Below, in pieces: positions 11,930 through 36,766 of a stretch of 64,000 nt of DNA (position 1 is its first letter; each line of letters starts with the position of its first letter). Below the pieces are notes generated by a model that worked only from the letters and a program-made list of their open reading frames with translations, had not been told where the DNA came from and searched no databases. The stretch is from a virus (lineage: Duplodnaviria > Caudoviricetes). Location of the stretch: positions 325 through 64,324 of the IMG/VR virus record IMGVR_UViG_3300036985_003381. One strand, given 5' to 3'. Both the position numbers and the translations under genes were made by a program.

Positions 11930-12092
11930 ATTACTACTACTATATATAAATATATATAATATATATTATTTTTATAATTATAATTAGGTTAATTAATTAA
12001 CATAATCGACATTAGTTCATCAAATCAGATAGTTAAGCAAAAAAAACGTACATAAAATCGACATAAAAACGACATGCAATGACATACGACAT
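11930..12092. repeat. AT-rich region with AATCGACAT repeats (origin-like, copy 2)
   Basis: TATATATAAATATAT tract; AATCGACAT at 12004 and 12056; degenerate GACAT units running into the primase start. Confidence 0.6.
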
Positions 12093-14481: not shown

Positions 14482-15913
14482 AAGAGATTACGGACATAAT
14501 AACCAAATGATGTATGAGTCTTGTCTTAGGTTGCAGAGAGTTATTAATATTAGCACAACTGAGACAAAACGTGGTAAGATAGAAATAAAATTAAAACATA
14601 AGACAGACATCGAAACAGTAAATAAAATTAATATGAGTTGTGAGCATTATAGATTACTGTCGGAGCGTGACCTGAAAAGACATTCTGAGTTAATTCTTAG
14701 AGACTATCAAATTGATATAACTAATAAGGCAATTGATATAATTAATAGGCATGGATTTGTTTACTTAGCTATGGAAGTTAGGACAGGAAAAACTTTTACT
14801 TCACTATCTATAGCAGAGGATTTAATGGTTAAAAATGTATTGTTTATTACTAAGAAGAAAGCGATATCAGGTATTAAAAAAGATATAAATCATTTTTTAC
14901 CAATCTATAACATAGAGGTAATAAATTATGAGAGTTTGCATACTGTTGAAAACAATCATATATGGGATTTAGTAATATGCGATGAAGCTCACAGTATGGG
15001 AGCATTTCCTAAGCCAAGTATAAGAGCGGTTTCTGTAAAAAATATTTTAAAAAAAACAGGATGCAAGACAATATTCCTTTCAGGAACGCCAACTCCAGAA
15101 TCATACTCACAGATATATCATCAAGTATATGGTGTTGCATTAAATCCATTTAGAGGATTTTCTAATTTCTATAAATTTGCAAATGAATATGTCAATGTAG
15201 TACAAAGAAATATTGCTGGAAATAAAGTAAATGACTATTCAAATGCATTGAAATCCATAATTGATGTAATGAATCCATATACTATTAGTTATACTCAAAA
15301 AGAAGCAGGATTTTTAAGTGAAATAAAAGAAGAGATATTGTATATAAAACTAAAAGAGTCTACCTATAATATAATAAATAAATTAAAAAAAGATTTAGTT
15401 GTTAAAGGGAAAGATGAAGTCATACTAGCAGATACATCCGTAAAACTTATGACTAAAATACACCAACTATGCTCAGGAACAGTAAAGTTTGAGAGCGGCA
15501 ATTCAATAGTACTAGATACAAGTAAGGCAGAGTTTATTAAAAATAATTTTTTGGGATGTAAGATTGGAATATTTTATAAGTTTAAGGAAGAACTAAACGC
15601 ATTAGAAGAAATATTCGGTGATGAACTTACTACCGATCTTGAAGAGTTTGATAATACAAATAAGAACATAGCCCTACAGATTGTATCCGGGAGAGAAGGT
15701 ATATCACTAAAGAATGCTGACTATTTGGTTTACTATAACATCGATTTTAGTGCTACAAGTTATTGGCAATCTAAGGATAGAATGACTACCAAGGAAAGAC
15801 CTGCTAACCAAGTCTATTGGATATTTTCTATTGGTGGTATTGAAAAAGATATTTACAAGCAAGTATTAAATAAAAAAGATTATACATTAAACCATTTCAA
15901 AGAATCATTATGA
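14468..15913 (+). CDS. SF2 (SNF2-like) helicase
   Basis: LRDYQ, RTGKT, DEAH, SGTP, QSKDR motifs. Confidence 0.85.
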   Translation: MQLIERDYGHNNQMMYESCLRLQRVINISTTETKRGKIEIKLKHKTDIETVNKINMSCEHYRLLSERDLKRHSELILRDYQIDITNKAIDIINRHGFVYLAMEVRTGKTFTSLSIAEDLMVKNVLFITKKKAISGIKKDINHFLPIYNIEVINYESLHTVENNHIWDLVICDEAHSMGAFPKPSIRAVSVKNILKKTGCKTIFLSGTPTPESYSQIYHQVYGVALNPFRGFSNFYKFANEYVNVVQRNIAGNKVNDYSNALKSIIDVMNPYTISYTQKEAGFLSEIKEEILYIKLKESTYNIINKLKKDLVVKGKDEVILADTSVKLMTKIHQLCSGTVKFESGNSIVLDTSKAEFIKNNFLGCKIGIFYKFKEELNALEEIFGDELTTDLEEFDNTNKNIALQIVSGREGISLKNADYLVYYNIDFSATSYWQSKDRMTTKERPANQVYWIFSIGGIEKDIYKQVLNKKDYTLNHFKESL

Positions 15914-19014: not shown

Positions 19015-19400
19015 TACAATTTGAATCTAAAGAAAATATAGCAAGGAAAAATAAGTCAATGGATGTATTCATTAATACATTCGGTGGAATTTATAAGAAA
19101 TCTGAATCCTTAGAATATAAAATACTGAATATAAATGGGGACCTAATTGCTTATTCAGAAGTAATTATATCCCCAAATGTTATAAGATACGCTTATCCAT
19201 TATCAATTACCATTACCAGGTTTAACAAGTTGATATCTAAGCGGCTTAATCCGGTACTCATTTGGTCGTGTGACGATGGTATTATATACGCTAAAGCTAT
19301 GAACCTAATTGGTACAATAAAATATGATAAACTTTTATCTGACTTTGTAATATACTTTGACAAACAAAAGGAGTTCAAATATATTAGGTATATAAATTAA
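19011..19400 (+). CDS. Hypothetical protein
   Basis: Last ORF of + arm, convergent with the giant gene (4-nt overlap). Confidence 0.7.
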   Translation: MIQFESKENIARKNKSMDVFINTFGGIYKKSESLEYKILNINGDLIAYSEVIISPNVIRYAYPLSITITRFNKLISKRLNPVLIWSCDDGIIYAKAMNLIGTIKYDKLLSDFVIYFDKQKEFKYIRYIN

Positions 19401-22400
19401 AAATTTTCATTAATTGCATCATCTATTTCTTTATCAATATTTTCAATTTCTTTATAAATTTCTTTATCAATATCTTCAATGCTACTGCTTTTAGAAGATG
19501 TCTTTTTCGTTAATTGTTTTTCTGTTTTCCCTTGTTTTTTGATAATTGCAAGTTCTCTTTTGGATATAGTTTTAACATCCGTTGGGACTAATTTTAGCAT
19601 TGAAACAGAATTTAACAATAAAAGTAATGGCAATTTATTTACATCTTCATCTGATAATGTTTTAGTATTACCATAATCATCTACAAATTGTTTAGTATAA
19701 ATCATTTTAGACAATTTATATAATCCCATAGCATCTTCTGCTGCTATACCCAATATCCCTGCTTGTTTAACAAAGTCTTTTGGCTTTGCTTCAAACAACA
19801 ATAATCTTTCTTTTTCTGGCTTGTCCATTTGCAACATATTTGCAATATAATTTATTCCAAATGTTACAGCAGGGTCTGTTAAAGGAACAGGAGAAAGCAT
19901 ATCGGCTGCAAGATTTGTAATTTGCCCTTTATAAATATTATTTAATCTTTTTTGTTTTTCTTCTTCATCGTCATCTCCACCCCATATTGAATTAGTGATT
20001 GAATCTAGTAATGCAGTTGTACCTATCGACACCAATCTAAATGCAGCAGCTTCTACTGCAAATCCTGCTAATGACTTTGCTGCTATTGCCTTGTCTTGTT
20101 TAGATGAAGTAAAACTTGTAAGTGTAGTTACATCATTTATCAATCGTATAGACTGATTTATTCTGAAATTAGCAAAAGCAAATATTGTTTTTACTACAAT
20201 CGTTCTGTATGCATCATTTTTAGTAAATAGCATTCCTCCCAAGTCCGGATCGGATATGTTCTGTTGTCTGTTAACCATTCTTGTAGCATAATTTTTAGCA
20301 TCCTCGTTATATACATTAAAATCAAATTTTATTTTATTTTTACTCAAATAATCTTTGTAGTATGTAAACCACGATGCCCTAGCAATAAATACATCAGGTT
20401 TTTCAAGCAACCATTTAAGTTGAAATTCTCCCAATTTTTTTATATATTCTAATTGCTTTATTCCAGATGAATTATTTATTAAATCTTCTAACTTATTTGA
20501 TTTAGTTATTTGAGCCTCAGATGCCATTGACCTATTTGCAACTGTTGTACCTGAATTATCAATAAAATCTCTAATTTGTTTATTCCAAATATTTCTAATG
20601 TCTAACCCATTTGCATTAATTATTGTATTAAATGCCAATGGCACTACTTGTTTAACAGGTTGAGATAAACTTGTAAGTGCGGATGCAACTCCTATAGATG
20701 TAATACTATTTAATTTATTTATTGCTCTTGATAACTGTTCATTATTTATATTATTTTTATTTCTTGTAAGTTTCACATAATGATTTACTCTTGATTTTAA
20801 TAAATTTCTATCATTTTTATTTGGTATAATATTAGACATATTTTCCATAAAAGCTTGAAGTTGTCTTATAGGACCAGCCGTTTTTATATCTATCAATGCA
20901 TCATACATTGAATTTACATTATTTGTATCAAACGATAAATTTATATATGAACCTTTTGGTAGAGGTTTATGTTGTGCTTTTTTAAGTGACCCTGACTCCT
21001 CTTTATATAATGTCCCAGGTCTAAAATTATTTGTATTAAATACTGACTGAGTTTGTTCGATATCTAATTCTTTTTTTAATTCTGTATTTAGATATCTCGC
21101 AGGGGTATAATTAGATTCTCTCTCTAATATTTCATTGTAAATACTCTTAGAAACATCGTTCATTTCATCAAACTTGCTGTCCCATTTGTTTACCCAAAAA
21201 AGTACAGCCTCCCCATTTATTGAACTAACTTTACCTTCAATATCTTCAATGCTTTCGGCATCTTTAAGTATCTTATTATATACCTTTTTATATAGCTCCC
21301 CTAATCTGTTTTCTTCTTCTGAACTTTTATCATTTGTAAGATATTCTATAGAGTCTATTATATCGTTTTTGCTTCTTATAAAATCATCTTCCATTTGCTC
21401 ATTTGTGCCAATAATTGTTCTTAGCATATGTGCATACATACCACGTTCTACAATATTTTCTTCATCAAAAAAATCTTTCCCATTTGGTTTTGTGTCTCCA
21501 AACTCTTTAGTATACTCTACAGCAAACTTTTTTACTTCACTTGTCGCTTCAGCCTTCCCATTTACAACGCTTGAAATACCGCTCTTATCTTCAAAAATAC
21601 CCCCCCTTATAACCCCTTTAAACATTTTCTCTATTAAAGATGGTAGAGAGGAAAGTTGTTCATATGCCGCCCCTCCTATAACCCCGGAGAAATATAATTT
21701 AATTTTACTAGATATTAATTTGTTTTTTTCAAGTTCCAACGAATTTTTCAATCCTGTATATTCATAAAAAACAGACCCTATTTTTGCAATAGACTTATTC
21801 TGTATAAAGTTCTGCAATGCATCCACCGCATCAATAACTGTCTTTAAATCCAATAAAGACAAATCCATACTCATAAATTTCTTTATAGTTTGCTCTTCAG
21901 AAGCTGTCAGTTCAAATATATCACCACTAATAGGTTCTGTTCCAGTACTAATTATCTTATTTATTATTGCTGAAAAAGAATCAAATCTACCTTTAGCCTT
22001 TTTTCTAAATAAGCCTTCATCTTCTTTCTTTATAATTAATTTATCTTCTTTAATTAATTTGATTATTTGATTATATGTCATACCAGAAGTATCATCAATT
22101 CCAAATAATTCTTCTAATTGTTCTGATGCTCTATTAAATAATATTCTATCCTGAATTTTTTTTACTGTTTCAATATATTTTAAAGTAGGTACAATATCTA
22201 TAATATCAACAAAATTATCTGATGATTTTGTTCCGGTTATAGACTCTTTTAGTTGCGTTGCGATACTATTATACCTGTCTATATCCTCTACTAACGATGT
22301 GTCTAGTTCTAAGAACTTTTTTGCTAATGCCCTTAAATCAGCATTTTTAGATTTATTAGCAGCTAGTTTTGCTATTTGTTTTTTTATTTTATTGGCAGCA

Positions 22401-25400
22401 ATTAGTTTATTTTGATAGTCTACATCTTTAAAAACATTAGACATATAGTCTAAAAACGTATTTATAGAGTCATCATTAAACATATTTATTTTACTAAATT
22501 TATTTAAAATGGCTGTTAACTGAGATGTACTTATTTTCCCGTTTATCTTTAATGCTCTGACTGACTTTATAACCTCAGCGGATATCTTTAACCAAGCTGC
22601 CTTGGTATCCCTTGATGATTTTGCCATGTCTCTTATTCTTTGCTTTAGAAGTTGAGTGTCTGTCATCGTAATATTTTTGATATCCTTGATAGTATCAAAT
22701 AATTTACCTGGAGATGGGGCAGACTTTTCTCTAACACCTAATTTCTTATTCAGCATCCTTACCAATGCCTCACGCTGTACATCTGTGGCATTCTCGTACA
22801 CCAAGGAACTCTGTAAGTATGCTAAAGCAGATGTGTATACCCTTTTCTTAGTAGAGTCAATCTTATTGGATGTTTCGTCAATAATTTTATCTAATTTCTT
22901 TATCATTGCATCGTACCCGGGCAGATTACTCTCGGATAGATCACCCTTCTGAGACTTGGATACAGGTTGGTTTAGACCTTTGAATAATGGTATTCCGCTT
23001 TCAACTGACTCTTTTAGTTCGGGTGTTATGTCTATGGAGTTTTGAGTGGTTGTTATATTATTGCTTTTTGATTTTAATTTTAATTTTTTAAATTCTTTAT
23101 ATAAATCAGAGTTTTCATTTATTTCTAATTTAACTGCGTCTACATTATAAATACCTTCTCCAGCATTTTCAAGGAAGTCTTGAAAAAATCTTATTTCTTG
23201 TTGATTCCCATCATATATTTTCTTTATAATTTCAGTTGTCTTCGGCTCTTGCTTAAATAAACTCTTAGCTACATTACCTACTATGCCTAAACTTCCTTCT
23301 TTTGGTGAACCATAAAAACCTTTCATCCCTTTGCCACCAATTTTTAAGTAGTCCCCTTTTAACACTTTATGCTCCCTTGGTTGCCCACTATAATAATCAT
23401 TCCCAATTACAGAATGATATTCTTCACTTACATTACCTTCATTATTAATAATTTTATTAGAAATTTCTTTACCTAATACTCCTTCAAGTTGTGATTCAGA
23501 ATAAACACCACTTGAAATAGATTGATTATTCTTATCAGCACTAATAATATATTTACCATTATCTAATTTACTATATAAAATTTCATCAACCTGCTTGCTC
23601 AGATCATACCTGTCATTCTGTTGTTCCCCAGTAGTCCAAGCAATCTTATCAGCACCTTGTTTTACTGCTTCTTTAAGAGCTACTTTTAAACCTAATTTTG
23701 CCCAAGCGTTTGTGTCCATTACGAAAGGAGCTTGAGGGGTTGATGCGTTAGCGTTGTCTATACTACGTTCAGCAATATTAATTTTTTCATTTTCTATTTC
23801 AATCCCATTAAAAGCTGATAATATTTCTTTTCTTATTGTTATTTTTTCCGTTTCGTATTTCTCAATTTCTTTATTTGCAGCATCCCAATCTCTGTTATTT
23901 CTTACGGTATCTTTATATTTTTCTAATCTAGCAATCGCTTTATTTATTTCAGATGTTCTTTCTGTTTTGCCTTGTTTAAATTCTGCAATTTCGGATGTAG
24001 ATGAATTTGGTAGTAAACCTAATTTTTTAAGCGATTTATTGTATTCAGATATTTTTTCTTTTGATTTATTAATAATACTTTCTTGCTCCGAAGTATCTTT
24101 AAACCCTTCCTTCTTACCTTTCTGTCCCCAATCGCTTTGTACTTCTTCTAAGAATAAAACCTTGTTGCCTTCTACATCTGTTCGGGTATTCATTCTTAAA
24201 TGAACAAGAATGTTTGGTTCGTCAAAGTGGGATGATTGGAATGATGTTTGGGCTTTTCTGTTTGCTGCTATTCTTTCTTTCTCTGACCTATTAAATTCTT
24301 CGTAAACCTTATTAAATTCTTTGTCCGTTAGGTCTGCAAACTTTGGTGCTTTTATTCCTTCTTGCCCTCTGTATTTACTCATATTGCCCTCATACCAATC
24401 TCTTAATAAGAGCGGTTTTTCTTTACTCGGCAATGTAACCAATATCTCTTTGTAGTTTTCTTTTTGTCCTTCTAATTGGTATTGAGAGAATTTAGTTCTA
24501 CTATTTTCTACATAGTCATTTCTAAGATACTCAATAGCATCATCTCTTGACATATCTTCACCTACTTCATCATTCATTAAGGTATCTATATCATCTTCGG
24601 TTGGTTCTTCTTTCACAACCTCAACTATTTCAATACGATTGGTTTTAAAGTAATCAAGTAAATCGTTTTTATAAATTACTTTATCCGAATTTTCAGTTAA
24701 ATAATCGGCAACACCAGTCCATTTAAGCTCATCTCCCTCTGTTTCTCCTATTAATCGTTTTAACCATTCTTTCCCTGTGGCTTTATCAAGTTTAGACTTG
24801 TTTATTCCCCTTTCAAGTGGACTATAAAACCCATTAATTAATTCGGCAGTAGGTTTAGAATTATCTACTTCAACTTCTACTTCTTTTCCGTTGAGTGTAA
24901 CTTTGTATTTGTCGTTTAGGTGTTTGGCAAATAATCCTTTATTCCATTTGGCATTATTTATTTTGCTATCTATCCACTGAATTGCTTTATTAATAGCATT
25001 ACCAAGTTTAGACCCTTTTTCTACTTCTCTTGCCGCTATTTCTAATGCACCGTTATAAATAGTTTTACTTATACCGAAATCTACATGTACGCCTAATCCG
25101 CTAAGTTTCTTAGACCTTATTTTTGAGGCTAAGTCTTTTATATCCTGTCCCTTCTGAGACTTGGATACGGGTTGGGGTGTTGCTTGAGAGTTTTTTTCTT
25201 TAATATCAAGAGCTTGTTCATTTAATGTAGGGCTATCGCTATAAAACTGACCCCCAATAGATTGTAAATTACCTAGTGATTCTATTTTAGAACGTCCAAA
25301 ATCAGCATTACCCCCAATAGACTGTAAATTACCTAGTGATTCTACTTTAGAACCCTCAAAATAAGCATTACCCCCAATAGACTGTAAATTACCTAAGTCT

Positions 25401-28400
25401 TTTACTATAGAGTCATTAAACTCAGCATAACCGCCAATAGATTGTAAATTACCTAGTGATTCTACTTTAGAACCCTCAAAATAAGCATTACCCCCAATAG
25501 ACTGTAAATTACCTAGTGATTCTACTTTAGAACCCTCAAAAGTAGCATAACCCCCAATAGACTGTAAATTACCTAAGTCTTTTACTATAGAGTCATTAAA
25601 CTCAGCATAACCGCCAATAGATTGTAAATTACCTAGTGATTCTACTTTAGAACCCTCAAAATTAGCATAACCCCCAATAGACTGTAAATTACCTAAGTCT
25701 TTTACTATAGAACCATTAAAAGTAGCATAACCCCCAATAGACTGTAAATTACCTAAGTCTTTTACTATAGAATTAGTAAAATTAGCAGTACCCCCAATAG
25801 ATTGTAAATTACCTAGTGATTCTATTTTAGAACGTCCAAAATCAGCAGTACCCCCAATAGATTGTAAATTACCTAGTGATTCTACTTTAGAACGTTCAAA
25901 ATCAGCATTACCACTAATATATTTTAAATTTTTTGGGAATACAACTGAACTACTATCATAATAATCATTAATCAATATTTCAGTATTTGATTCAATACCA
26001 CTACTATATAATGCAATTTTTCCTCTTAAATCCTCAGCAACATCACCATACCTTACTTTTACTTTAATATTTTCAGTTAATTTGCTTACTAACCCATTTT
26101 CACCATAATCAACAGAATATTTTTTAGCATCTTTTATTATATCAAAATATTCTAATATGTCATCCATAGACATATCCTTATCTTCAATGTTCTTAGTAAA
26201 GTCTTTTACTTTATTATTATAAGCAATAGAATCTAACCACTTCTTACCACTATCGTTTGGTATACTTTCTTTTAAGAACTTATCTGCGACAGGTAGCATA
26301 TCGGGTTCTAAATCTTGCTTAGAAGAAGCATTCCCTCTTACCTCACCAACCTTATCACCATCCATCCTTACAGCAATCCTAGGAACGTATTCTCCCTTTT
26401 CATCATCTGTAACATAAACATAAAAATCACCTCCCTTTAATTGGTTTAGTGCATTTGTTTTTGTACACCAATAAGTATTTTGTACTAACTGAGATAATTT
26501 ATTTGCTGTATTACTTAAATCTTGTGCATTATTTCCACCATCAAACTTCAACCATTTGCCTTCTTTAGTAGATACCATAGAATTAGCACCAACAATATTA
26601 TTTACATTATTTGCTTGTACTTCTACATAATCTTTTAATAGTGCCTTGCTCTCGCTATCATAGATAGATGCAAGTGTCCCTGCATCAAATGGTGTAAAGT
26701 TTCTAATTGTTTTATTACTTCGCTTGGTATATGATCCTGTCTTAAAATCATAGTTATGAGTAAGAACAGCATCTAATATTATATATTTAAACGCATCACT
26801 GTAATCAGATTGGTTTAGATAGTCCTTCCATTGACTTAATGTTTCTGATTGCGCTCTTGCATACTCTTTAATATAATTAGCTCTCATAGGAGAGTTTTCA
26901 TCAAGAGCAGACCTGGCACTTTCTATCCTACTTAAAGATGCACCTTCGTCTTCTAATGTGGTAATCTCAGCTTTTATGGCTTGTGTAATTGCAGGGCTAT
27001 CTTCATTAATTATATATTTATTAATATCTTTTATAAGTTTATTAAACTCTTCAGATATTTTTTTACCTACCTCTTCCTTGGTGAACTTTACTCCAGATAA
27101 ACCAATTTGATTCATTGCCTGAGCAGTTCTCTTATCTTGTATACCAACCCTATTATATTTAAGAACATCGTTTTCAGTAAGATTTATTAATCCTTTCTGA
27201 GACTTGGATTTTATAGTTGACCTTTTAACCCTTGAACCATATTTATTTACAATATAATGAGACCCTCCGGTACCATATATATTTGGTAAAGTTTTAATTG
27301 CCTTATATCCTAATCCTAGTTTATTTAATTCTTGTGTTATTCTTGGACCTTCAATAATTTTATCTATATATCCATTCTTATCCATTTTAAACCTGTCAGC
27401 AAATGCATCAAAGTCTTTCTGAGACTTAGAAATAGGGAATTCCTTATTCATCTTATCAACCTCAGATTGTACCTTATCAGATACTACAGGAACACGCTCA
27501 AAGAAGTTATTCTCAGCTGCTCTATTTTTACTTAAAGTATCTTTACTAATTTTTGTGAATCCGTTTTTCTTGTAGAATTCATTTAATTGCTTTTGATTTA
27601 ATCCTTTCTTAGTACCTGCACGTCTTTCTGATTGAGCTAATGGCTCTCCAATAAGAGTTATATTGTTCTTATCTGCAAAATTAGTTAGTGTCTTTAAAGA
27701 CTCACTTCCCCTTCCTTGACCTAACTTGTCGGGATTTACTTGGAAGTCATCGATAGTCACATAACCATCATTACTTTCTGATAACCAAAATGTAGCTCCG
27801 TCGAACATCATCGCTACATCAGAGCGACTATCTCCACGCATCTGTGCAACACTCGATAGGTCAGTAAAGAACAGTCTATTTTTGTTGGCATCTAATCCAC
27901 CAAAGAATGTGTCTTTTATCTCTTCATATTTACCTTCTGTAGAGACCTGTGATTTAGATACCACAGGATTTCTCTCCATCATATTATTTTTAGTGCTCTT
28001 CTCGAAACCGAATTTTGAGTAAAACTCTTTCAACTTCTGAGGAGTCTCAAATCCCTTGGCTTTAATTTCACCAATAAGATTTGGAGTGAGTATCATTTTT
28101 ACGTTATTCTCATCAGCAACCTTAGTAACGATGTTCATTATTTTTGAACCATTACTGGTACGCTCACCTTTGTTTTTACTTACAATCTCATCAATCTTAA
28201 CAGTGTTGTCATCAATCTGAGTCATCTTGATTCTTCCGAGAAGATTTCCATTTTCGTCTGTAGCTGCATACCCTCCACCTAAGTGGTCATTTGGGAATAC
28301 CACATCCATCTTATCAAAGAAATTATCAGATTTTGTTGCTAATTGTGACTTGGATACAGCATTTGTAACTTCAAAAACTGCTACTTTTGGTATTGCTCCT

Positions 28401-31400
28401 GCACTTGATGCTACATTTTTCTGTTCAAATTTTGGCTCTTGTGCTTTCCTTGAAGTCTCTGATCCTGACTTATTATATTTTATATAAGATTCAGTTACAT
28501 TACTTGATTTATAAAAATCAGTAGGTTGATATATACCATTTATTTTAGCCAAAAGAGACCACCCAAAAGATGGATGATGGTCTACAGCATCAGGTTTAGT
28601 TTCAACAATTTTAAATGTATTTGGGTCAAATTTAATTACATTAATTATTTCACCTCCTTCAACACCCTTGTTAAGTGGGTCCATTATTCTATTAAAAAAC
28701 TCTTCTTTATTTTTTACTCCTATTGCTTTTTGAAAAATCTTATTTGCAGCGATTGCATTGTTTAATGCTTTCCTTAAATCAGGAGAATAATTATTTTTAA
28801 TATCTAATAGTTCTACAATCTTTTTAGGATTACTTTTAAATGAACTAAAATTTTTAATATTCTTGCCATACTTATCTTTAAATGCTTTAAATGCTGCTTT
28901 ATTTTCAGAATTAGATTCAATAGTTTTATTAAATGTATCTATCAATTCTGATTCACTCATTATCCCTTTATCTGTAATTAAGTTAATAAGTTCTGCAAAT
29001 GTATGTTGTTGGAATTGCCAAGAATTAGATAATGTTCCTGAATGCGGAGCAAATAAAGATGCCTTTCCCTCTTTTGCATTTCTTATAAATGATTCTGCTT
29101 GAGCTTGTGAATTAAATGCCGCCAAATTAGACACGTCTCCAAGTTTTTTATTTTTTAAAGACATCATATATGGGACATAATTTTTCCCACCAAGCATATT
29201 TATTTTAAATCCATTCCCTAAATCTGTTTCACCTACGGTTGTATAATCATACATATTTGTTACAAAAGGCATTCCGTTAAATTCCTTTATATCAATATCT
29301 TCAACTAGGTTTTTAATAAATGATCTGCTGTCATCTGAAACACTAGGAGCTTTCTTTGTATCCTTACTACTTTTAGACCCAAAGTTAAATATTCCTATTT
29401 CACCACCACTATTAAGTTCTTTTAAATAATCACCATTAATCTCCTCACCTTGTCTTATTGATTTAGATACCGTATTTAAAAAATCTATTAGCTCTTTAGT
29501 GTTTTTTGTATCTTCAAATACAGTTATTTTACCACCTGTTATTTTAGATACGGTTTGATTAATTACAGCAGCAATTTTTTGAAGTATTGTCGGTGATATA
29601 TTAACATATTCTTGCTCTAATATAGCAGCCAATTCAACAATATATTCCTCATATTTAACATCTCCTTTATAATTATTTGCAAAATCTACTAAATATTTAT
29701 TTGCAGTGCTATTTAGTATTGGTTGCATTTTATCTACAAATGTTTTAAATATTTGCTCGTTTTCACCAAACACTTTTAACATTATACCATGAGCAACCTC
29801 ATGTGCTACCGTAAGTTTATTTGCTTTATTTAAATTTATATCTATACTACCAGAAAAAGACCCATCACTTTGTTTAGTATAACTAAAATTTCCTGCTGAC
29901 CCCTTTTCTCCGTTTACTTTTTCAACTGCTGTATTATAGCTTTCTTCGGTATCATGTATAACTATATCAAAATTAGGTAGAACTGATTTTAATGTTTTTA
30001 TAGCCTTTTGAGCTTTATTAATTATACTAGAATGTAACTCAGAACCCTTTGCCTTTAAAGCATTTATTTTTTCTGCATTTGTTATTGATATACCACTATC
30101 TACTGGTGTTTGTGGTTGTCGATACATTGAGTCTTTAGTAGAAAAATCTTTATTCTTTCCCTTATTTTCTACAAATCCAAACTTCTTATAAAATTCTTTT
30201 AATCTATTTACAGAAGTACCACCAAAATCAATTGATGGTGTTAATACTATTCTTCTACCAATACTATCTGCATATTTTATAATAGCCTCCATTGCCTTAG
30301 AACCAACACCTGTGCTTCTTTCATCTTTTGGTACCTCTATCCTTGACAATGTTAAATCACCTTTGTCAGAATTACCCGTCAAGTCAACAATAACCCCATA
30401 TTCATTTTCAATTTGTTTTGAAAATTCTATTGGTTCTAGTACTTGGGCTTCATCGGTTTTGGTTTGGTTTTTGGTTTTGCTTTCATCTGTTGTTTCGTTT
30501 AATGGTTTAACTTGTTGTGTGGTTTGAGCCAACGCATCTAATTCTTTTTGAGCCTCCGCTATTGGCACTGCTATATCTCCTATAGTTACAGTGCCTGTAG
30601 TGGTGTCTGGTGACTGAAGTGCTTCCTCAAGGATTACTTTCCTTTTTTGCTCTTCATCAGTAAGGACTTTTTTGGTCCCTGTGGTAGTTTCTTGAAGTTG
30701 GGTGTCTCCTTCTCCCATGCCTTGCAATCCCATTTCGGGCTGTTCATTGCGTAACATGCTTTCACTTGTTGTTTGTTCTTGAATGGCATTTTTTGTTATA
30801 TTAGTAAGTTTTTCATCTATTGCATCAATTTGATCTTTATATGGCTTAACTAAACTTGGGTCTTTATCTTTTATTTTTTCAGTTAATTCTTGTTTTTGTT
30901 TTAATAAATCTAGAGATTCTTTAGTTTGATCCAAAGATAACCCCGGGGGTATTTGATTAAATAATTGTTCTGCCTTTTGGTAGTTTACCAATTCCTGTTT
31001 AGCCTCATCAAGACTTAGTTCACCTAAGTTTACTTTTAATTTCAAGTCTGCAACATATGCTTTTTGTATTTTTTCATTGTTTGCAGTAAGACCAAATACT
31101 TTAAGCGTATTATCGCTCAAGTCTTTGAATGCACCTGCCTTATACGCACTACCAACTGTACTTACACCTGTTATTACAAATCCTCCTAACCCCTCTAAAA
31201 AACCTGCCTTGCCCACTTGGCTCATATACTCACCTATGGTTTCTGGCGTAGTAAATAATTGCTTGTCTTGCATATCATTATATACTTGCTTTATGGTTAT
31301 ATCCGCAATTTCTTGAGCTACACCAGTTTCAGCCTCAGCCAAGAATCCTCCTACCAGCTTTAATGCTCCTTTTTGTATTTCGCCTTTTACAACATTATCT

Positions 31401-33130
31401 ATTAACTCCTTACTTGATACCGCCTGTATTGCTGCGCCAGGTTTATATTGACCTATTACCTTTAATGCTAAATTATTCAATAACCCTTTACTTTCAATAG
31501 CATTTCTAAAACCAGCCTTCTCTAATGCTGACCCAATGCCTCCAGTAATAACTTTTAATGCTAATTTATCATTTTCAGGTATTTTGCTTAGTTCAGGATC
31601 GTCTTCAATTTCCTTAGTCATACCATCATATATCTGTGAGAACATAGATATGGCTCTAATAGGCGCACCGCCTAACATAGAAAGAGATGAAGTTGCTAAC
31701 CCATAGCTCGCTTGTGATAAATATGACCTCTTATCAGATGATATATATTGTTCTGTAGAAGAATCTTCAGATTTCAATAAATTACTCCAACCATCTCTTA
31801 ATAGTGGGTCTGTAACTGATCTTATTTCTTTTTTTATTGTTTTTTTTACTTCATCTGTTAGGTAAGGGTTAGACATTAATACTACATCTGTTAATGTATT
31901 TACTATCCCTGAAGGTATACTGCCAGCACTCTTAGCTACCCCCTGTAGTAACATATCTCCATATGTGCCTTTGTCTTCAAGCATTCCCACATATTTACCT
32001 ACATTGTAATCTAAGTCTTTTTTATGTGCTTTATACAGTGGTATTGACTTATCTAATACTTCTTTTTGTCCTTTAAGATTATCATATACTCTGGTTATTT
32101 CATCATATAGACTTTTAACCTCCGGAGTATTTCTTTGATCCTCAGGATAAGAATTGTACATCCTAGTTAAATCATCATAGTTTTTAGAAGTTTTTATATA
32201 ATCATACTTATTTTTTTCTATATTATTTGCTTCTATGTTTATATTAGTTATTGCTCCAATATAATTTTTTTCATTTAATATCTGATTATTATATTTATCT
32301 ACCTCCTTTTGAACACGAATAATAGGGTCTTTAACATAATTGGTAGAGGTCTTAATGTAATCCTTTAATTCTTCCGCAGTTTTTGTTTTTTTAGAATCAA
32401 AGAATATATCTAAAGGGAAATCTCTTTTTCCTTCAGGTGTTGTAACTGTTACATAATCACCACTTATACCTGTCTTTTCGAATGTAACCCCATTACCTTT
32501 AAATAGATAATTTAAATATGGTACAGCATTTTCCTCTCTCTGAGACATTAACTCAGGGGTAATTTGCTCTAACTTCTTACCAATATCCTCAGTTTGTGTT
32601 ATTTCGGCTTGTTTTTCTTTCGGAGCTTTAAATAACTTTTTTGATTCATCTTCATATGAAGGTGCCTTGGCAACATCAATACCACCTTTTTCAGTAGGTC
32701 TAACTAATTTACCCTTAAATGGGTCAAATGGTGGAGCAGAAAGTTTTTTTGATGGTGTATCTAATACTTGCTCGTCTTCAACAGTACGTCCGTAATTTTC
32801 GTGTCCACTTGATATAGTTGGAGGCAATTGTCTCCTCCAGCTTTCGTCTTCAGGTTTTTCTGAATCCAAAGAACCACCCGTTGAAGGTAATCCCATAATT
32901 CGTCCTTTTTTTTTTACTTCCGGAGTAGCAATAGATTCTGGCTCCCCTATACCTAAAAGTGTTTTAAAATCAGAAATATCTCCATTATATCCGTCCTTAA
33001 CGAATAACTTATGGGAGACATCTAATGCCTTTGGGTTTGTAGATACGAGTGTTTTAAAATCAGAAATATCTCCATTATATCCGTCCTTAACGAATAACTT
33101 ATGCGCTACCTGTAATGATTTTTCGTCCAT
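19397..33130 (-). CDS. Giant polyvalent, probably virion-ejected protein (4577 aa)
   Basis: Three GNAT-like modules, HEVAH zincin, WCT-motif domain plus 11 LRR-like repeats, EEVQSDW domain, long helical C-terminus; last gene after tail/ejection genes. Confidence 0.85.
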   Translation of the reverse strand: MDEKSLQVAHKLFVKDGYNGDISDFKTLVSTNPKALDVSHKLFVKDGYNGDISDFKTLLGIGEPESIATPEVKKKGRIMGLPSTGGSLDSEKPEDESWRRQLPPTISSGHENYGRTVEDEQVLDTPSKKLSAPPFDPFKGKLVRPTEKGGIDVAKAPSYEDESKKLFKAPKEKQAEITQTEDIGKKLEQITPELMSQREENAVPYLNYLFKGNGVTFEKTGISGDYVTVTTPEGKRDFPLDIFFDSKKTKTAEELKDYIKTSTNYVKDPIIRVQKEVDKYNNQILNEKNYIGAITNINIEANNIEKNKYDYIKTSKNYDDLTRMYNSYPEDQRNTPEVKSLYDEITRVYDNLKGQKEVLDKSIPLYKAHKKDLDYNVGKYVGMLEDKGTYGDMLLQGVAKSAGSIPSGIVNTLTDVVLMSNPYLTDEVKKTIKKEIRSVTDPLLRDGWSNLLKSEDSSTEQYISSDKRSYLSQASYGLATSSLSMLGGAPIRAISMFSQIYDGMTKEIEDDPELSKIPENDKLALKVITGGIGSALEKAGFRNAIESKGLLNNLALKVIGQYKPGAAIQAVSSKELIDNVVKGEIQKGALKLVGGFLAEAETGVAQEIADITIKQVYNDMQDKQLFTTPETIGEYMSQVGKAGFLEGLGGFVITGVSTVGSAYKAGAFKDLSDNTLKVFGLTANNEKIQKAYVADLKLKVNLGELSLDEAKQELVNYQKAEQLFNQIPPGLSLDQTKESLDLLKQKQELTEKIKDKDPSLVKPYKDQIDAIDEKLTNITKNAIQEQTTSESMLRNEQPEMGLQGMGEGDTQLQETTTGTKKVLTDEEQKRKVILEEALQSPDTTTGTVTIGDIAVPIAEAQKELDALAQTTQQVKPLNETTDESKTKNQTKTDEAQVLEPIEFSKQIENEYGVIVDLTGNSDKGDLTLSRIEVPKDERSTGVGSKAMEAIIKYADSIGRRIVLTPSIDFGGTSVNRLKEFYKKFGFVENKGKNKDFSTKDSMYRQPQTPVDSGISITNAEKINALKAKGSELHSSIINKAQKAIKTLKSVLPNFDIVIHDTEESYNTAVEKVNGEKGSAGNFSYTKQSDGSFSGSIDINLNKANKLTVAHEVAHGIMLKVFGENEQIFKTFVDKMQPILNSTANKYLVDFANNYKGDVKYEEYIVELAAILEQEYVNISPTILQKIAAVINQTVSKITGGKITVFEDTKNTKELIDFLNTVSKSIRQGEEINGDYLKELNSGGEIGIFNFGSKSSKDTKKAPSVSDDSRSFIKNLVEDIDIKEFNGMPFVTNMYDYTTVGETDLGNGFKINMLGGKNYVPYMMSLKNKKLGDVSNLAAFNSQAQAESFIRNAKEGKASLFAPHSGTLSNSWQFQQHTFAELINLITDKGIMSESELIDTFNKTIESNSENKAAFKAFKDKYGKNIKNFSSFKSNPKKIVELLDIKNNYSPDLRKALNNAIAANKIFQKAIGVKNKEEFFNRIMDPLNKGVEGGEIINVIKFDPNTFKIVETKPDAVDHHPSFGWSLLAKINGIYQPTDFYKSSNVTESYIKYNKSGSETSRKAQEPKFEQKNVASSAGAIPKVAVFEVTNAVSKSQLATKSDNFFDKMDVVFPNDHLGGGYAATDENGNLLGRIKMTQIDDNTVKIDEIVSKNKGERTSNGSKIMNIVTKVADENNVKMILTPNLIGEIKAKGFETPQKLKEFYSKFGFEKSTKNNMMERNPVVSKSQVSTEGKYEEIKDTFFGGLDANKNRLFFTDLSSVAQMRGDSRSDVAMMFDGATFWLSESNDGYVTIDDFQVNPDKLGQGRGSESLKTLTNFADKNNITLIGEPLAQSERRAGTKKGLNQKQLNEFYKKNGFTKISKDTLSKNRAAENNFFERVPVVSDKVQSEVDKMNKEFPISKSQKDFDAFADRFKMDKNGYIDKIIEGPRITQELNKLGLGYKAIKTLPNIYGTGGSHYIVNKYGSRVKRSTIKSKSQKGLINLTENDVLKYNRVGIQDKRTAQAMNQIGLSGVKFTKEEVGKKISEEFNKLIKDINKYIINEDSPAITQAIKAEITTLEDEGASLSRIESARSALDENSPMRANYIKEYARAQSETLSQWKDYLNQSDYSDAFKYIILDAVLTHNYDFKTGSYTKRSNKTIRNFTPFDAGTLASIYDSESKALLKDYVEVQANNVNNIVGANSMVSTKEGKWLKFDGGNNAQDLSNTANKLSQLVQNTYWCTKTNALNQLKGGDFYVYVTDDEKGEYVPRIAVRMDGDKVGEVRGNASSKQDLEPDMLPVADKFLKESIPNDSGKKWLDSIAYNNKVKDFTKNIEDKDMSMDDILEYFDIIKDAKKYSVDYGENGLVSKLTENIKVKVRYGDVAEDLRGKIALYSSGIESNTEILINDYYDSSSVVFPKNLKYISGNADFERSKVESLGNLQSIGGTADFGRSKIESLGNLQSIGGTANFTNSIVKDLGNLQSIGGYATFNGSIVKDLGNLQSIGGYANFEGSKVESLGNLQSIGGYAEFNDSIVKDLGNLQSIGGYATFEGSKVESLGNLQSIGGNAYFEGSKVESLGNLQSIGGYAEFNDSIVKDLGNLQSIGGNAYFEGSKVESLGNLQSIGGNADFGRSKIESLGNLQSIGGQFYSDSPTLNEQALDIKEKNSQATPQPVSKSQKGQDIKDLASKIRSKKLSGLGVHVDFGISKTIYNGALEIAAREVEKGSKLGNAINKAIQWIDSKINNAKWNKGLFAKHLNDKYKVTLNGKEVEVEVDNSKPTAELINGFYSPLERGINKSKLDKATGKEWLKRLIGETEGDELKWTGVADYLTENSDKVIYKNDLLDYFKTNRIEIVEVVKEEPTEDDIDTLMNDEVGEDMSRDDAIEYLRNDYVENSRTKFSQYQLEGQKENYKEILVTLPSKEKPLLLRDWYEGNMSKYRGQEGIKAPKFADLTDKEFNKVYEEFNRSEKERIAANRKAQTSFQSSHFDEPNILVHLRMNTRTDVEGNKVLFLEEVQSDWGQKGKKEGFKDTSEQESIINKSKEKISEYNKSLKKLGLLPNSSTSEIAEFKQGKTERTSEINKAIARLEKYKDTVRNNRDWDAANKEIEKYETEKITIRKEILSAFNGIEIENEKINIAERSIDNANASTPQAPFVMDTNAWAKLGLKVALKEAVKQGADKIAWTTGEQQNDRYDLSKQVDEILYSKLDNGKYIISADKNNQSISSGVYSESQLEGVLGKEISNKIINNEGNVSEEYHSVIGNDYYSGQPREHKVLKGDYLKIGGKGMKGFYGSPKEGSLGIVGNVAKSLFKQEPKTTEIIKKIYDGNQQEIRFFQDFLENAGEGIYNVDAVKLEINENSDLYKEFKKLKLKSKSNNITTTQNSIDITPELKESVESGIPLFKGLNQPVSKSQKGDLSESNLPGYDAMIKKLDKIIDETSNKIDSTKKRVYTSALAYLQSSLVYENATDVQREALVRMLNKKLGVREKSAPSPGKLFDTIKDIKNITMTDTQLLKQRIRDMAKSSRDTKAAWLKISAEVIKSVRALKINGKISTSQLTAILNKFSKINMFNDDSINTFLDYMSNVFKDVDYQNKLIAANKIKKQIAKLAANKSKNADLRALAKKFLELDTSLVEDIDRYNSIATQLKESITGTKSSDNFVDIIDIVPTLKYIETVKKIQDRILFNRASEQLEELFGIDDTSGMTYNQIIKLIKEDKLIIKKEDEGLFRKKAKGRFDSFSAIINKIISTGTEPISGDIFELTASEEQTIKKFMSMDLSLLDLKTVIDAVDALQNFIQNKSIAKIGSVFYEYTGLKNSLELEKNKLISSKIKLYFSGVIGGAAYEQLSSLPSLIEKMFKGVIRGGIFEDKSGISSVVNGKAEATSEVKKFAVEYTKEFGDTKPNGKDFFDEENIVERGMYAHMLRTIIGTNEQMEDDFIRSKNDIIDSIEYLTNDKSSEEENRLGELYKKVYNKILKDAESIEDIEGKVSSINGEAVLFWVNKWDSKFDEMNDVSKSIYNEILERESNYTPARYLNTELKKELDIEQTQSVFNTNNFRPGTLYKEESGSLKKAQHKPLPKGSYINLSFDTNNVNSMYDALIDIKTAGPIRQLQAFMENMSNIIPNKNDRNLLKSRVNHYVKLTRNKNNINNEQLSRAINKLNSITSIGVASALTSLSQPVKQVVPLAFNTIINANGLDIRNIWNKQIRDFIDNSGTTVANRSMASEAQITKSNKLEDLINNSSGIKQLEYIKKLGEFQLKWLLEKPDVFIARASWFTYYKDYLSKNKIKFDFNVYNEDAKNYATRMVNRQQNISDPDLGGMLFTKNDAYRTIVVKTIFAFANFRINQSIRLINDVTTLTSFTSSKQDKAIAAKSLAGFAVEAAAFRLVSIGTTALLDSITNSIWGGDDDEEEKQKRLNNIYKGQITNLAADMLSPVPLTDPAVTFGINYIANMLQMDKPEKERLLLFEAKPKDFVKQAGILGIAAEDAMGLYKLSKMIYTKQFVDDYGNTKTLSDEDVNKLPLLLLLNSVSMLKLVPTDVKTISKRELAIIKKQGKTEKQLTKKTSSKSSSIEDIDKEIYKEIENIDKEIDDAINENF
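25251..25910 (-). repeat. Eleven 60-bp coding tandem repeats (20-aa LRR/L-domain-like)
   Basis: LGNLQSIGG counted 11 times with exact 60-nt period. Confidence 0.95.
30634..30789 (-). CDS. Overprinted 51-aa basic protein in the +1 frame of the giant gene
   Basis: MPFKNKQQVKACYAMNSPKWDCKAWEKETPNFKKLPQGPKKSLLMKSKKGK; A-rich start; resembles small MPFKS..Q..W..ETP..LP phage proteins. Confidence 0.55.
   Translation of the reverse strand: MPFKNKQQVKACYAMNSPKWDCKAWEKETPNFKKLPQGPKKSLLMKSKKGK
32958..33103 (-). repeat. Two identical 56-bp repeats at the giant gene 5' end
   Basis: 32958-33013 equals 33048-33103, period 90 nt; encodes HKLFVKDGYNGDISDFKTL twice. Confidence 0.9.
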
Positions 33131-34664: not shown

Positions 34665-35486
34665 TTATCCCCCCAACTTCTTATTGAGTTTAATCTCATT
34701 TGGAGTAAGTGGTTTTTGATTAAATTTAAAATCTGACACTTCTATGGGAGGGAATGTTCCAGTTGGTATAACTTGTTTTGTAAAATCAAATAAAGCAGAA
34801 TAATTCCCAGCTATAAAATCCGCATTATTATATAATGTAGGGGCAACATCTTTATATTCCAACTTTGCATATTGCGGAGGTAATGTGTTTGCTTTTTTAG
34901 CAGCATTAAATTCTGCTTCACCTGGACCTAAACCGCTCCCATATAATGAAGACATATTAACCATTTGCCCTCCTGCACTTACAAGACCTTGTACAGCAGC
35001 TGTATTTGATGCTGCTGCCATTTCCTGATAGTTTTGAGATGCTAACTGTGCGCCCTCGACCTCTTGCAAATCTAATCCTATTTTTTGTCGGTTTAAGTTT
35101 ATGTCTTCACTAGCTACTAACTTATTTAATTCTGTTAAGTCCTTTCCCATTGCTGTAGATATACCTGCCATAGCATCGTTTTGTGCCATTTGAATCCGTC
35201 CTGCTACAGCTGCTGCACCACGCTCACTTTCCACACCTGCTTGTAGTGCCGCTTGACCTGATGCCAATAGGGCTTGTTGCTGTAAGTTGTATGGTTCCTT
35301 TTGGATTCCTAATTTTTCATAGTAATTTATATCTAACTTAGCTCTTGCTTCATCCATTGCTTTTTGAGCGGCAGCATCAGCCTCTCTTTGCTTTTTTTTA
35401 TTTTGTTCAGCTTGGTAAAACGATACACCTGATGATGCTAAAGTTGTACCAAGACCTATTGCCGCTATTACTGTTCCTGTTGCCAT
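34665..35486 (-). CDS. Putative ejection/pilot protein
   Basis: Hydrophobic Gly/Ala N-terminus followed by Gln/Ala-rich coiled coil. Confidence 0.6.
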   Translation of the reverse strand: MATGTVIAAIGLGTTLASSGVSFYQAEQNKKKQREADAAAQKAMDEARAKLDINYYEKLGIQKEPYNLQQQALLASGQAALQAGVESERGAAAVAGRIQMAQNDAMAGISTAMGKDLTELNKLVASEDINLNRQKIGLDLQEVEGAQLASQNYQEMAAASNTAAVQGLVSAGGQMVNMSSLYGSGLGPGEAEFNAAKKANTLPPQYAKLEYKDVAPTLYNNADFIAGNYSALFDFTKQVIPTGTFPPIEVSDFKFNQKPLTPNEIKLNKKLGG

Positions 35487-35906: not shown

Positions 35907-35914
35907 CAAATTTA
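35907..35914 (-). promoter_or_regulatory. Bacteroidota sigma-A -7 element TAAATTTG
   Basis: Fits TAnnTTTG immediately upstream of ATG 35900. Confidence 0.5.
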
Positions 35915-36766
35915 AGGGAAACTTTTCATAACATCTGTTTCTAATGTAAATAACTCTACTTTATCTGTTGATGTATTAGTTAACTCAAACACACAATAAT
36001 GACCAAGTATACCATACGACTCTGCCATTGTATTTTTCATTATTAAAATATATGGGTCTTGGATTCCCGGAATAGATGTAATTAGTATACCGTCCTTATA
36101 AAGCAATGTATTTACCACTAATTTATTGTTGCCTGCAACATAATCCACTATAATGTTATCAATTTGCCCTAAAAGTAAAGGTGATGTATATGGAGGAAGA
36201 CAGTAATAAACATAATCATAAACGCTTATAATAGATCCTATTGATATTAGGGTTGGAGATATAGCAAATCTTACATCTAGTGCAGCCATACTTCCTGTTA
36301 TGACAGAACTTGTTCCTATACCTGTTAAACTTCTCAAGGCATATTTATCTAACTCCGCTGGCAGAGTAAATGTATTTCTGATAAATGCAAACCAAGTCCC
36401 CTCCTTTTCTGAGAACCAAGCTGAGTCAACTATATAATCGCTTTGTATGTCTGTATATAAATTAGCTCCCCACGAAGAATCTCCTTGTATGTCAAGCGTT
36501 TTAAATAACTTGTTAGTAGTTGGAGCGTCATTGAATACACTAGTTATAGTTGACGGTTCAAATGCCAAATCGGGGGTTGGGGGTTCGTGCTTGTTCCACC
36601 ATGGGAGATAAAATGTATTCCTATCTGAATTTGCATTATGACGATATAAGCACCCACCTTTAAATGTGTATAGGTAGTTATTCATGCCCGTAATACGCTC
36701 AGGAAAATATGAGTAAAAAGATACCCACCCGTTTGCTGAATCGCTAAATGTTAAAGTTTTTTCCAT
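35912..36766 (-). CDS. Tail protein resembling the C-terminal part of a tail nozzle/muzzle
   Basis: TLTFS....GWVSFYSY.PE, YTFKGG.LY.HN, KLFKTL, EKEG.WFA motifs. Confidence 0.6.
   Translation of the reverse strand: MEKTLTFSDSANGWVSFYSYFPERITGMNNYLYTFKGGCLYRHNANSDRNTFYLPWWNKHEPPTPDLAFEPSTITSVFNDAPTTNKLFKTLDIQGDSSWGANLYTDIQSDYIVDSAWFSEKEGTWFAFIRNTFTLPAELDKYALRSLTGIGTSSVITGSMAALDVRFAISPTLISIGSIISVYDYVYYCLPPYTSPLLLGQIDNIIVDYVAGNNKLVVNTLLYKDGILITSIPGIQDPYILIMKNTMAESYGILGHYCVFELTNTSTDKVELFTLETDVMKSFP

Follow-up and report, generated by a model that had tools for sequence, protein, structure and literature searches.

We analyzed a 64,000-nucleotide window that covers nearly the whole of a 64,324-bp IMG/VR virus record (IMGVR_UViG_3300036985_003381, positions 325 to 64,324), the genome of a phage with portal, terminase and virion proteins. 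On its minus strand lies an open reading frame (ORF) of 4,577 amino acids (aa), located at 19397-33130 (P0001), predicted to encode a polyvalent, ejection-type virion protein. This giant protein repeats a short motif of the form (P)(V/I/K)-S-K-S-Q-(K/V/L/I) at the borders of its modules, one of which is a zincin-like metallopeptidase. Related giant proteins carry the same motif or repeat words of their own at the corresponding places, and the excess of SKSQ is limited to family members that bear the zincin. We consider it probable that the giant protein is an ejection-type polyprotein cut at [K/R]-x-Q junctions by its own zincin.

A repeated motif at module borders

The tetrapeptide SKSQ starts at aa 1593, 1725, 1901, 1975, 2656 and 3391 of the giant protein (n = 6), compared with 0.13 occurrences expected from its composition. 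Six copies were not attained in any of 5,000 residue shuffles, which yielded three at most. In a six-frame scan of the window SKSQ was absent from every other frame open for at least 100 aa. We considered a general head-protease site and ruled it out, since the other ORFs of the genome are without SKSQ. A related hexapeptide, GSKSSK, has its first serine at aa 1252 and is a degenerate copy of SKSQ; the homologous position in the close relatives P0003, P0004 and P0006 holds a true SKSQ right after the zincin, and in many relatives the motif directly follows this domain. An earlier note on this DNA had listed these motifs together with HEVAH (aa 1110) and EEY (aa 1161), and all of its positions are right to within one residue. 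Its observation of SKSQ repeated at module borders is confirmed, and its interpretation as a polyprotein cut into separate effectors is partly supported.

The junctions are numbered J1 to J7 along the protein, and all are encoded on the minus strand. J1 (SKSS, aa 1252-1255, 29366..29377) is the degenerate copy and parts the zincin from a conserved module, m340. J2 (SKSQ, aa 1593-1596, 28343..28354) stands where the homology block of m340 ends, J3 (SKSQ, aa 1725-1728, 27947..27958) between the acetyltransferase-like modules GNAT2 and GNAT3, J4 (SKSQ, aa 1901-1904, 27419..27430) after GNAT3, and J5 (SKSQ, aa 1975-1978, 27197..27208) ahead of a WCT domain with leucine-rich repeats (LRR). J6 (SKSQ, aa 2656-2659, 25154..25165) comes after the last LRR and a low-complexity stretch. 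At J7 (SKSQ, aa 3391-3394, 22949..22960) similarity to the module m735 ends and similarity to the C-terminal core (C-core) starts.

Comparison with related proteins places the motifs at the ends of homologous segments. A search with aa 1041-2240 against 1.84 billion representative proteins gave 400 matches at E<=1e-3, of which the best 150 were analyzed; these relatives are mostly proteins of 2,000-4,400 aa and are pairwise at most 50% identical. Numbered along the query, the homology blocks comprise the zincin (1 to ~200), m340 (~200-555), GNAT2 (552-693), GNAT3 (690-852) and WCT (935-1200), and their ends coincide with the motif positions. Similarity to m735 stops no more than about 10 aa from the next motif (q720-731) in 111 of 119 relatives, and begins within 20 aa of J6 in 47 of the 119. 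Similarity to the C-core begins 2-5 aa past the last motif in 18 of 27 relatives.

Two AlphaFold (AF2) models were built with the alignments of the relatives, model 1 spanning aa 1041-1600 (mean predicted local distance difference test score, pLDDT, 82.6) and model 2 spanning aa 1575-2300. Model 1 consists of a folded zincin, a disordered stretch, a folded m340 and a disordered tail with SKSQ-1593 (pLDDT 30-35); GSKSSK sits in a short helix (pLDDT about 77) after the disordered stretch. In model 2, SKSQ-1593 and SKSQ-1725 both fall in stretches of pLDDT <50, the second of them within positions 130-186 of the model, and SKSQ-1975 lies at the end of another such stretch (368-402), directly before a domain of pLDDT >87. 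Altogether, three of the five modelled SKSQ are in or at the edge of stretches of pLDDT <50. The motifs had been proposed to fall at apparent domain boundaries, with AlphaFold as a suitable check: homology-block ends and models agree with this proposal, both models placing motifs at domain borders, aa 1901 excepted.

The 150 relatives contain 74 copies of SKSQ in 358,981 aa, compared with 6.9 expected, and the copies are spread over 39 proteins. Their flanks are mostly unrelated, with a preference for P at position -2, for V, K, T or I at -1, and for I, V, K or L at +1.

The zincin and lineage-specific junction motifs

The zincin-like metallopeptidase module occupies aa 1041-1251 (29378..30010, minus strand), is folded to about aa 1225, and contains HEVAH at aa 1110-1114 (29789..29803, minus strand). 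Residues H1110, E1111, H1114, E1161 and E1162 are invariant in 96 aligned zincin domains. Of 157 domains, 147 retain HExxH; the remaining 10 belong to one close group. The model has strands at 14-19, 40-46 and 52-59, HEVAH in a helix at 67-81 and EE in a helix at 118-132, one Glu of this pair being the putative third zinc ligand of a gluzincin-type enzyme; three strands, an HExxH helix and a Glu helix are described as the core of the metallopeptidases of polyvalent proteins (PMC5512222). The first match of the model among known structures (VIA) is the catalytic domain of anthrax lethal factor (1yqy_A, Z 6.6, root-mean-square deviation 4.3, 129 aa), followed by PPEP-2 (Z 6.4) and PPEP-3 (Z 5.9), and further by collagenase, ERAP1 and SPRTN (Z 4.4-4.6). 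A sequence search of the module against the PDB gave no match, and the nearest atlas clusters, LPD23 and LPD1, provide a lead only. Because of its motif, topology and conservation we call the modelled domain a zincin, and do not claim membership of peptidase family M34. The earlier suggestion that the HExxH module is a protease-type domain agrees with the invariant residues and the structural matches of a conserved zincin. No other endopeptidase was found by Pfam (E<=0.01) in 30 further ORFs, which contain a single peptidase, a cell-wall enzyme of the M15 type, nor did annotation of the ORFs reveal a prohead protease gene.

To relate the motif to the zincin, we used samples retrieved independently of it: 119 proteins found through the C-core alone and 119 found through m735 alone. 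The 41 zincin-positive proteins of the C-core sample have 27 SKSQ (2.7 expected), whereas the 78 zincin-negative ones have 2 (4.5 expected; binomial p 1.8e-10). In the m735 sample, 114 zincin-negative giants have 5 SKSQ in 404,515 aa (7.6 expected). Carriers of m735 without the zincin lack the excess, which argues that the zincin, and not the shared cargo module, brings the motif. This test covered SKSQ and not the variant motifs. The presence of any 4-mer repeated at least three times did not separate zincin-positive proteins (36 of 41) from zincin-negative ones (72 of 78). A previous contrast of 71 versus 0 SKSQ between proteins with and without the zincin was set aside as confounded: many of the supposed negatives proved to carry the zincin when screened with a profile.

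Two further groups of proteins were observed in these samples. In the C-core family, a close group of ten (P0378-P0387) matches the zincin profile, has lost HExxH and contains no SKSQ. Three proteins found through m735 (P0170, P0212 and P0221) belong to a different polyvalent class and repeat '...E(S/E)LL-SKEQ', which closes a small repeated domain and precedes low-complexity sequence; L003 has a small domain of the same type without SKEQ.

Many relatives that lack SKSQ repeat other words, among them SKAQ, SKSS, TKSQ, RKQK, RQQK, REQK, QRQQ, KQQK, KEQI, QQKI and IKRLQ. The variant words stand at both homologous junctions, J1 between zincin and m340 and J2 at the C-terminal end of m340, and recur further downstream. 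The two junctions read ...VKV-REQK-DSRDAP and ...NIAP-REQK-DTT in one relative (P0033), and ...TSG-KQQK-APS and ...PKG-KQQK-SSS in another (P0053). We compared J1 and J2 without reference to any motif, by the longest substring common to their windows within and between proteins; 10 of 36 proteins were dropped for missing anchors. A common substring of at least 3 aa is present within 20 of the 26 remaining proteins, and one of at least 4 aa within 10 of them, compared with 26% and 5% of cross-protein pairs. Neither count was attained in 5,000 permutations. Among IMG/VR loci, the substring reaches at least 3 aa in 23 of 34 and at least 4 aa in 13 of 34; 56 loci had been fetched by means of the zincin-m340 alignment, of which 22 were not parsed, and some are near-duplicates.

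The core of the motif across the family is [K/R]-x-Q. Of 39 proteins, 32 have it within the first 28 aa past m340, compared with 351 of 3,020 background windows (11.6%), and its P3 position is R in 19 and K in 13. At the start of the WCT domain, SKSQ|KGLI of the window aligns with RKQ|KGLI and REQ|KGLI of relatives, the Gln being constant. We also observed that J1 is often a decayed version of the motif used elsewhere in the same protein, the Gln being replaced by Ser, Thr or Lys: SKSS beside SKSQ, SRSS beside SRSQ, SKAS beside SKAQ, and KIKFT beside KIKFQ. In the zincin tree, users of K-[S/A]-Q, including this phage, and users of R-x-Q are separated by well-supported branches. For the QEK label, 6 changes are required on this tree, compared with a shuffled mean of 10.6, and 2 of 500 shuffles were as low. 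Homologues had been expected to have repeated linker motifs of their own that covary with the protease; the agreement of J1 and J2 and the clade split of the zincin tree are in line with this expectation, and a further junction pair was not significant.

The codons of the motif bear on the level at which it is maintained. Within the window, SKSQ copies use TCC for the first Ser in four of six cases (5% of Ser codons in the ORF), AAG in five of six (27% of Lys codons) and CAG in five of six (24% of Gln codons). Three copies share the 17-mer TCCAAGTCTCAGAARGG, found at 22944-22960, 25149-25165 and 27192-27208 (minus strand). The shared rare codons and the 17-mer indicate that several copies in the window have a common DNA ancestry, and they could stem, for instance, from module insertion at the linker. 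L004 and L014 encode SKSQ with TCA, AGT or TCT and with CAA or CAG, and these varied Ser and Gln codons in relatives show selection on SKSQ at the protein level. Differences in codon use between copies had been put forward as a sign of such selection: for the window, whose copies have rare codons in common, the argument does not work, but among relatives it does. Lys is encoded by AAG in 10 of 11 SKSQ copies with available DNA (window, L004, L014 and L031), compared with a background of 27-39%. A genome-wide DNA signal was ruled out, as neither the 17-mer nor the 9-mer core is present outside the giant ORF, within which both are in frame. A degenerate DNA pattern for PVSKSQKG matched no stretch in other IMG/VR contigs.

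Proposed processing, alternatives and known systems

The proposed mechanism is as follows. Conserved N- and C-terminal cores flank a cargo of three GNATs, the zincin, m340, WCT-LRR and m735. The embedded zincin (HEVAH...EE), with a putative fold like that of lethal factor and PPEP, would recognize the junction motif and cut the chain at each junction, with the scissile bond probably beside the invariant Gln. This would set the modules free as individual proteins, in the capsid or once they have been ejected into the host. Predicted products are a fragment from aa 1 to about 1251 or 1592 (N-terminal core, GNAT1 and zincin, with or without m340), followed by GNAT2, GNAT3, a 74-aa piece, WCT-LRR, m735 and the C-core. 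Protease and sites would have changed together, each lineage keeping its own version of the motif at all junctions. From the sequences we infer cleavage at the motif, the zincin as its agent, the scissile bond, the timing and the delivery into the cell.

Several observations weigh against this mechanism. All Z values of the zincin model are under the caution level of the tool (8), Foldseek of the model against the PDB found nothing at E<=1e-3, and Pfam gives the module DUF3267 only, with E 0.1. SKSQ-1901 begins a weakly predicted helix (pLDDT 50-64) with no clear linker, and its border is without support from homology. The hydropathy of the 30 flanking residues at 77 SKSQ sites equals that of random positions (p 0.74), and the linkers must therefore be short. 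Three of the 74 SKSQ in relatives are inside the WCT domain and probably incidental, and 111 of the 150 relatives have no SKSQ, their own motifs having been read by eye in a subset only. J1, the junction next to the protease, has [K/R]-x-Q in only 24 of 49 relatives and reads SKSS in the window. Given the sharing of rare codons, some of the six copies in the window are not independent. Agreement between the junction at the zincin end and the region before the C-core was not significant by a crude substring measure (permutation p 0.051 and 0.076), many pairs there matching by eye. Since protease and sites reside in one gene and share its history, their clade-wise agreement alone is no proof of co-adaptation; common descent alone would give the clade split of the zincin tree. 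Finally, such peptidases are present in the N4 virion RNA polymerase, in ArdC and in TraC1, all of which are described as packaged or transferred unprocessed (PMC5512222).

A more far-reaching version of self-processing is somewhat less likely than not: the family may be a diversified natural set of matched protease-site pairs, in which a zincin like lethal factor, with a lineage-specific junction code, dismantles an ejected 'effector train'. The code would be K-S/A-Q in this phage and R-K/Q/E-Q, K-R-L-Q and others elsewhere. If so, the degenerate J1 may be an uncut or slow site that ties the protease to m340, the linker DNA shared between copies may also be a seam for module swapping, and the cleavage maps of giant proteins from hundreds of uncultured phages would be readable from sequence.

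Other explanations give the motif a different role. One holds that it is a non-proteolytic linker tag, either a docking site for a factor of packaging, folding or ejection or a Lys/Gln cross-link, and that the chain stays intact. This explanation, which we regard as unlikely, would suit a core made of Lys or Arg and an invariant Gln, often followed by Lys, as well as the Cpn60-like ORF of the phage (62746-63993) and the unprocessed state of the N4-type giant virion proteins (PMC5512222). The prevalence of Arg over Lys in most relatives (19 versus 13 at P3) suits charge recognition better than cross-linking, Pfam scans of 30 ORFs showed no transglutaminase-like gene, and the tag gives no role to the intact and invariant active site of the zincin associated with it. 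A comparably low probability, if anything lower, attaches to the junctions being truly cut by a host protease or by an unrecognised phage protease, the zincin having some other job on host proteins or on the cell wall at entry. The frequent degeneracy of J1 beside the zincin (24 of 49 with [K/R]-x-Q) speaks for such a division of labor, and both kinds of job have precedents: effector roles for such peptidases were considered by Iyer et al. (PMC5512222), and a cell-wall role was proposed for the metallopeptidase of the giant ejection protein of phage phi24B (10.64898/2026.04.10.717836). The SKSQ excess, however, is found only in family members with the zincin (27 versus 2), the type of motif tracks the zincin clade, and the Pfam scan of 30 ORFs revealed no further endopeptidase. 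A host protease would also leave unexplained why each protein has its own motif at all junctions.

The least likely explanation, which we consider improbable, takes the repeats as cassette borders at the DNA level: nucleotide microhomology that permits in-frame insertion, deletion or swapping of modules, with no role for the peptide. It draws on the rare codons common to the window copies (TCC 4/6, AAG 5/6, CAG 5/6) and on the 17-mer shared by three of them. Since every copy has the same orientation and reading frame, whole modules would be lost by recombination between them. In relatives, however, other codons specify this peptide, among them AGT for Ser, the peptide motif is retained among representatives at most 50% identical, variant motifs keep the [K/R]-x-Q core, and the degenerate PVSKSQKG pattern is absent from other IMG/VR contigs. 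The sequence could nonetheless serve as a DNA seam in addition, as a secondary use specific to the lineage.

Self-processing of the giant protein by its zincin would have parallels in several known systems. MARTX toxins are secreted by bacteria and release their effector domains through an internal cysteine protease domain, which is activated by a small molecule of the host. They resemble the giant protein in having a train of effector modules in one delivered polypeptide, a built-in protease and a simple recurring site between modules; the phage protein differs in carrying a zincin within a virion-type protein, and the two have no known relation in sequence or fold. The polyproteins of RNA viruses are processed by chymotrypsin-like cysteine or serine proteases of the 3C/NIa type, with Gln at P1. 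Common to them and the giant protein are a short repeated site with an invariant Gln at domain junctions and the joint variation of site and protease; here, by contrast, the putative protease is of the zincin type. Anthrax lethal factor and the Pro-Pro endopeptidases (PPEPs), which belong to peptidase family M34, have strict and extended site specificity. The module shares with them HExxH and a downstream Glu, and they are its best structural matches (Z 5.9-6.6 over 126-132 residues); it differs by a sequence identity of only 12-15%, Z below 8, and the lack of a Pfam or PDB sequence match. The prohead proteases T4 gp21 and phiKZ gp175 are encoded by separate genes and act on many head proteins at a short consensus. 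If cleaved as proposed, the giant protein would, like their substrates, be a virion-internal protein cut at a short consensus, but its motif occurs in this protein alone, and the genome showed no gene for a prohead protease.

The closest comparison is with the polyvalent proteins defined by Iyer, Burroughs, Anand, de Souza and Aravind in 2017, among which zincin-like peptidases are the commonest domain (PMC5512222). Autoproteolytic release of domains was proposed for these proteins and likened to RNA-virus polyproteins (PMC5512222). As in their description, the protein studied here is a giant multi-domain phage protein with unrelated enzymatic modules and an embedded HExxH + Glu peptidase, theirs having been matched to lethal factor (PMC5512222). 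Its relatives carry the polyvalent Pfam families ART-PolyVal, ddrB-ParB, LPD38, LPD23 and RadC, and those found through m735 carry PF18760, PF18763, PF18857, PF18838 and PF04002. The giant protein thus has the many unrelated domains of a polyvalent protein and relatives with the signature domains of the class, and the position of its gene suggests packaging in the virion. In the phage phi24B, gp47 is an ejection protein that exceeds 3,000 aa, is packaged in the virion and combines polyvalent domains with a metallopeptidase (10.64898/2026.04.10.717836). As with the T7 gp14-gp15-gp16 genes and phi24B gp47, the giant gene comes last in the structural operon and is preceded by a gp14-like gene, and gp47 is likewise giant and polyvalent; unlike in our proposal, processing at repeated junctions is absent from the available text on gp47 (10.64898/2026.04.10.717836).

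Domain release driven by a zincin is therefore a known concept; new, as far as the literature search reaches, are the code of the sites, its limitation to carriers of the zincin and its variation between lineages. A full-text search of main articles gave no account of a cleavage motif at the junctions of proteins of this kind. The main text of PMC5512222 gives no cleavage-site motif ('linker' occurs 0 times, and 'cleavage site' in the references only), whereas a junction motif, its excess and its variants are defined here. The release proposal dates from 2017 and is given in the searched text without a site, a substrate rule or a test (PMC5512222); a defined junction motif makes the idea directly testable. 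If processing by the zincin is true, the family would represent the first counterpart of RNA-virus polyprotein processing in dsDNA phages whose site code can be read. The borders of modules and their mature products would be predictable in hundreds of metagenomic giant proteins, a family of small and possibly orthogonal site-specific proteases would become accessible, and the cargo that acts free in the host would be indicated (three GNATs, an LRR protein, m340 and m735).

Modules and genome setting

All modules of the giant protein are encoded on the minus strand. The N-terminal core extends from aa 1 to about 800 (30731..33130) and is conserved in the family by phmmer maps of relatives; its aa 1-275 are 27% identical to the giant protein of the uncultured podovirus MW202828.1. 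The C-core (aa 3395-4577, 19400..22948) is also conserved in the family, with 154 related giant proteins at E<=1e-3 and 37% identity in L003. The cores had no match in Pfam and PHROG, and Pfam scans showed no similarity to T7 gp16. Between them lie about 2,500 residues of cargo, and at least nine modules in all were counted there.

The three GNAT modules are paralogues. GNAT1 (aa 881-1040, 30011..30490) matches Pfam Acetyltransf_7 with 38.6 bits against a cut-off of 27, and is the only one to pass the curated Pfam cut-off for GNAT. GNAT2 (aa 1597-1724, 27959..28342) and GNAT3 (aa 1729-1900, 27431..27946) have Pfam matches under the cut-off and Foldseek matches to GNAT structures with probabilities of 0.97-1.0 and E >=4e-3, above 1e-3; GNAT2 is 33-37% identical to GNAT1 and GNAT3. 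A self-BLAST of the whole giant protein gave nothing usable, and paralogy was taken from the comparison of segments. The tail of GNAT3, PVVSDKVQ, is a decayed copy of PVVSKSQ. Between GNAT3 and J5, m75 (aa 1905-1974, 27209..27418) is a spacer or a small helical module with pLDDT 35-64 and no family match.

No other part of the cargo is as well conserved as the module m340 (aa 1256-1592, 28355..29365), in whose alignment dozens of columns reach at least 90% invariance. In most relatives it comes after the zincin, and its AF2 model has high pLDDT and weakly resembles PUA/YTH/ASCH-type domains with a CARD-like helical insert (Z about 5). The WCT domain with its LRRs comprises aa 1979-2655 (25166..27196; LRR match 8z5u, E 2.3e-6). 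Stand-alone WCT-LRR proteins of 766-1,734 aa exist (P0077, P0078, P0083, P0084, P0089 and P0098), and begin with a Met 5-20 residues ahead of the start of the WCT domain in the window, and at least the WCT-LRR unit must therefore work on its own. The EEVQSDW module, m735 (aa 2660-3390, 22961..25153), is widespread in polyvalent proteins: its relatives include 399 giant proteins at E<=1e-3, many with ART-PolyVal, ddrB-ParB, LPD38 or RadC Pfam domains. Some relatives (P0119, P0100, P0121, P0363 and others) have, past the last junction motif and ahead of the C-core, a conserved mini-domain of ~45 aa, 'ARAQGFSEEAIK.FL..KG...'. In 12 of 13 zincin-positive proteins it is immediately preceded by [K/R]-x-Q, and the window is without this mini-domain.

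The giant ORF closes the late, structural operon of the minus strand as its last gene. Two genes upstream of it is an ORF resembling T7 internal virion protein gp14 (34665..35486, minus strand), which matches Pfam T7_gp14 with E 6.8e-5 and 23.3 bits, below the cut-off of 27, and is a virion structural protein by PHROG. By position, the giant gene appears to occupy the podoviral slot for internal core or ejection proteins; packaging in the virion and delivery of the giant protein are proposed because of this position only, last in the structural operon and after the gp14-like ORF. Matches to PHROG families of virion structural proteins were obtained for the portal, a structural protein of 1,602 aa and further virion proteins. 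The portal shares 74% identity with its counterpart in MW202828.1 and 45-48% with portals of Flavobacterium, Maribacter, Cellulophaga and Tenacibaculum phages. Searches with the cargo and the C-core against 50,697 phage records gave no blastn match, and of two tblastn searches one gave four weak records and the other none; the cultured relatives are therefore too distant to be of use.

Other genes of the window were noted in passing. The TerL ORF (1,101 aa, 51857-55162, minus strand) includes a Hint domain and a LAGLIDADG homing endonuclease, which indicates an intein inside TerL. The Cpn60/GroEL-like chaperonin gene (62746-63993, minus strand; Pfam E 4.5e-31) is clipped by the end of the window, and its product might assist folding of the giant protein or of the capsid. 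The plus strand encodes a C5 cytosine DNA methyltransferase (8062-9588), a primase/helicase-like protein (12079-14481) and an SNF2 helicase (14468-15913). The minus strand further encodes the endolysin-like M15 peptidase (57340-57825) and a protein with a crAss 'muzzle' C-terminal domain (35912-36766).

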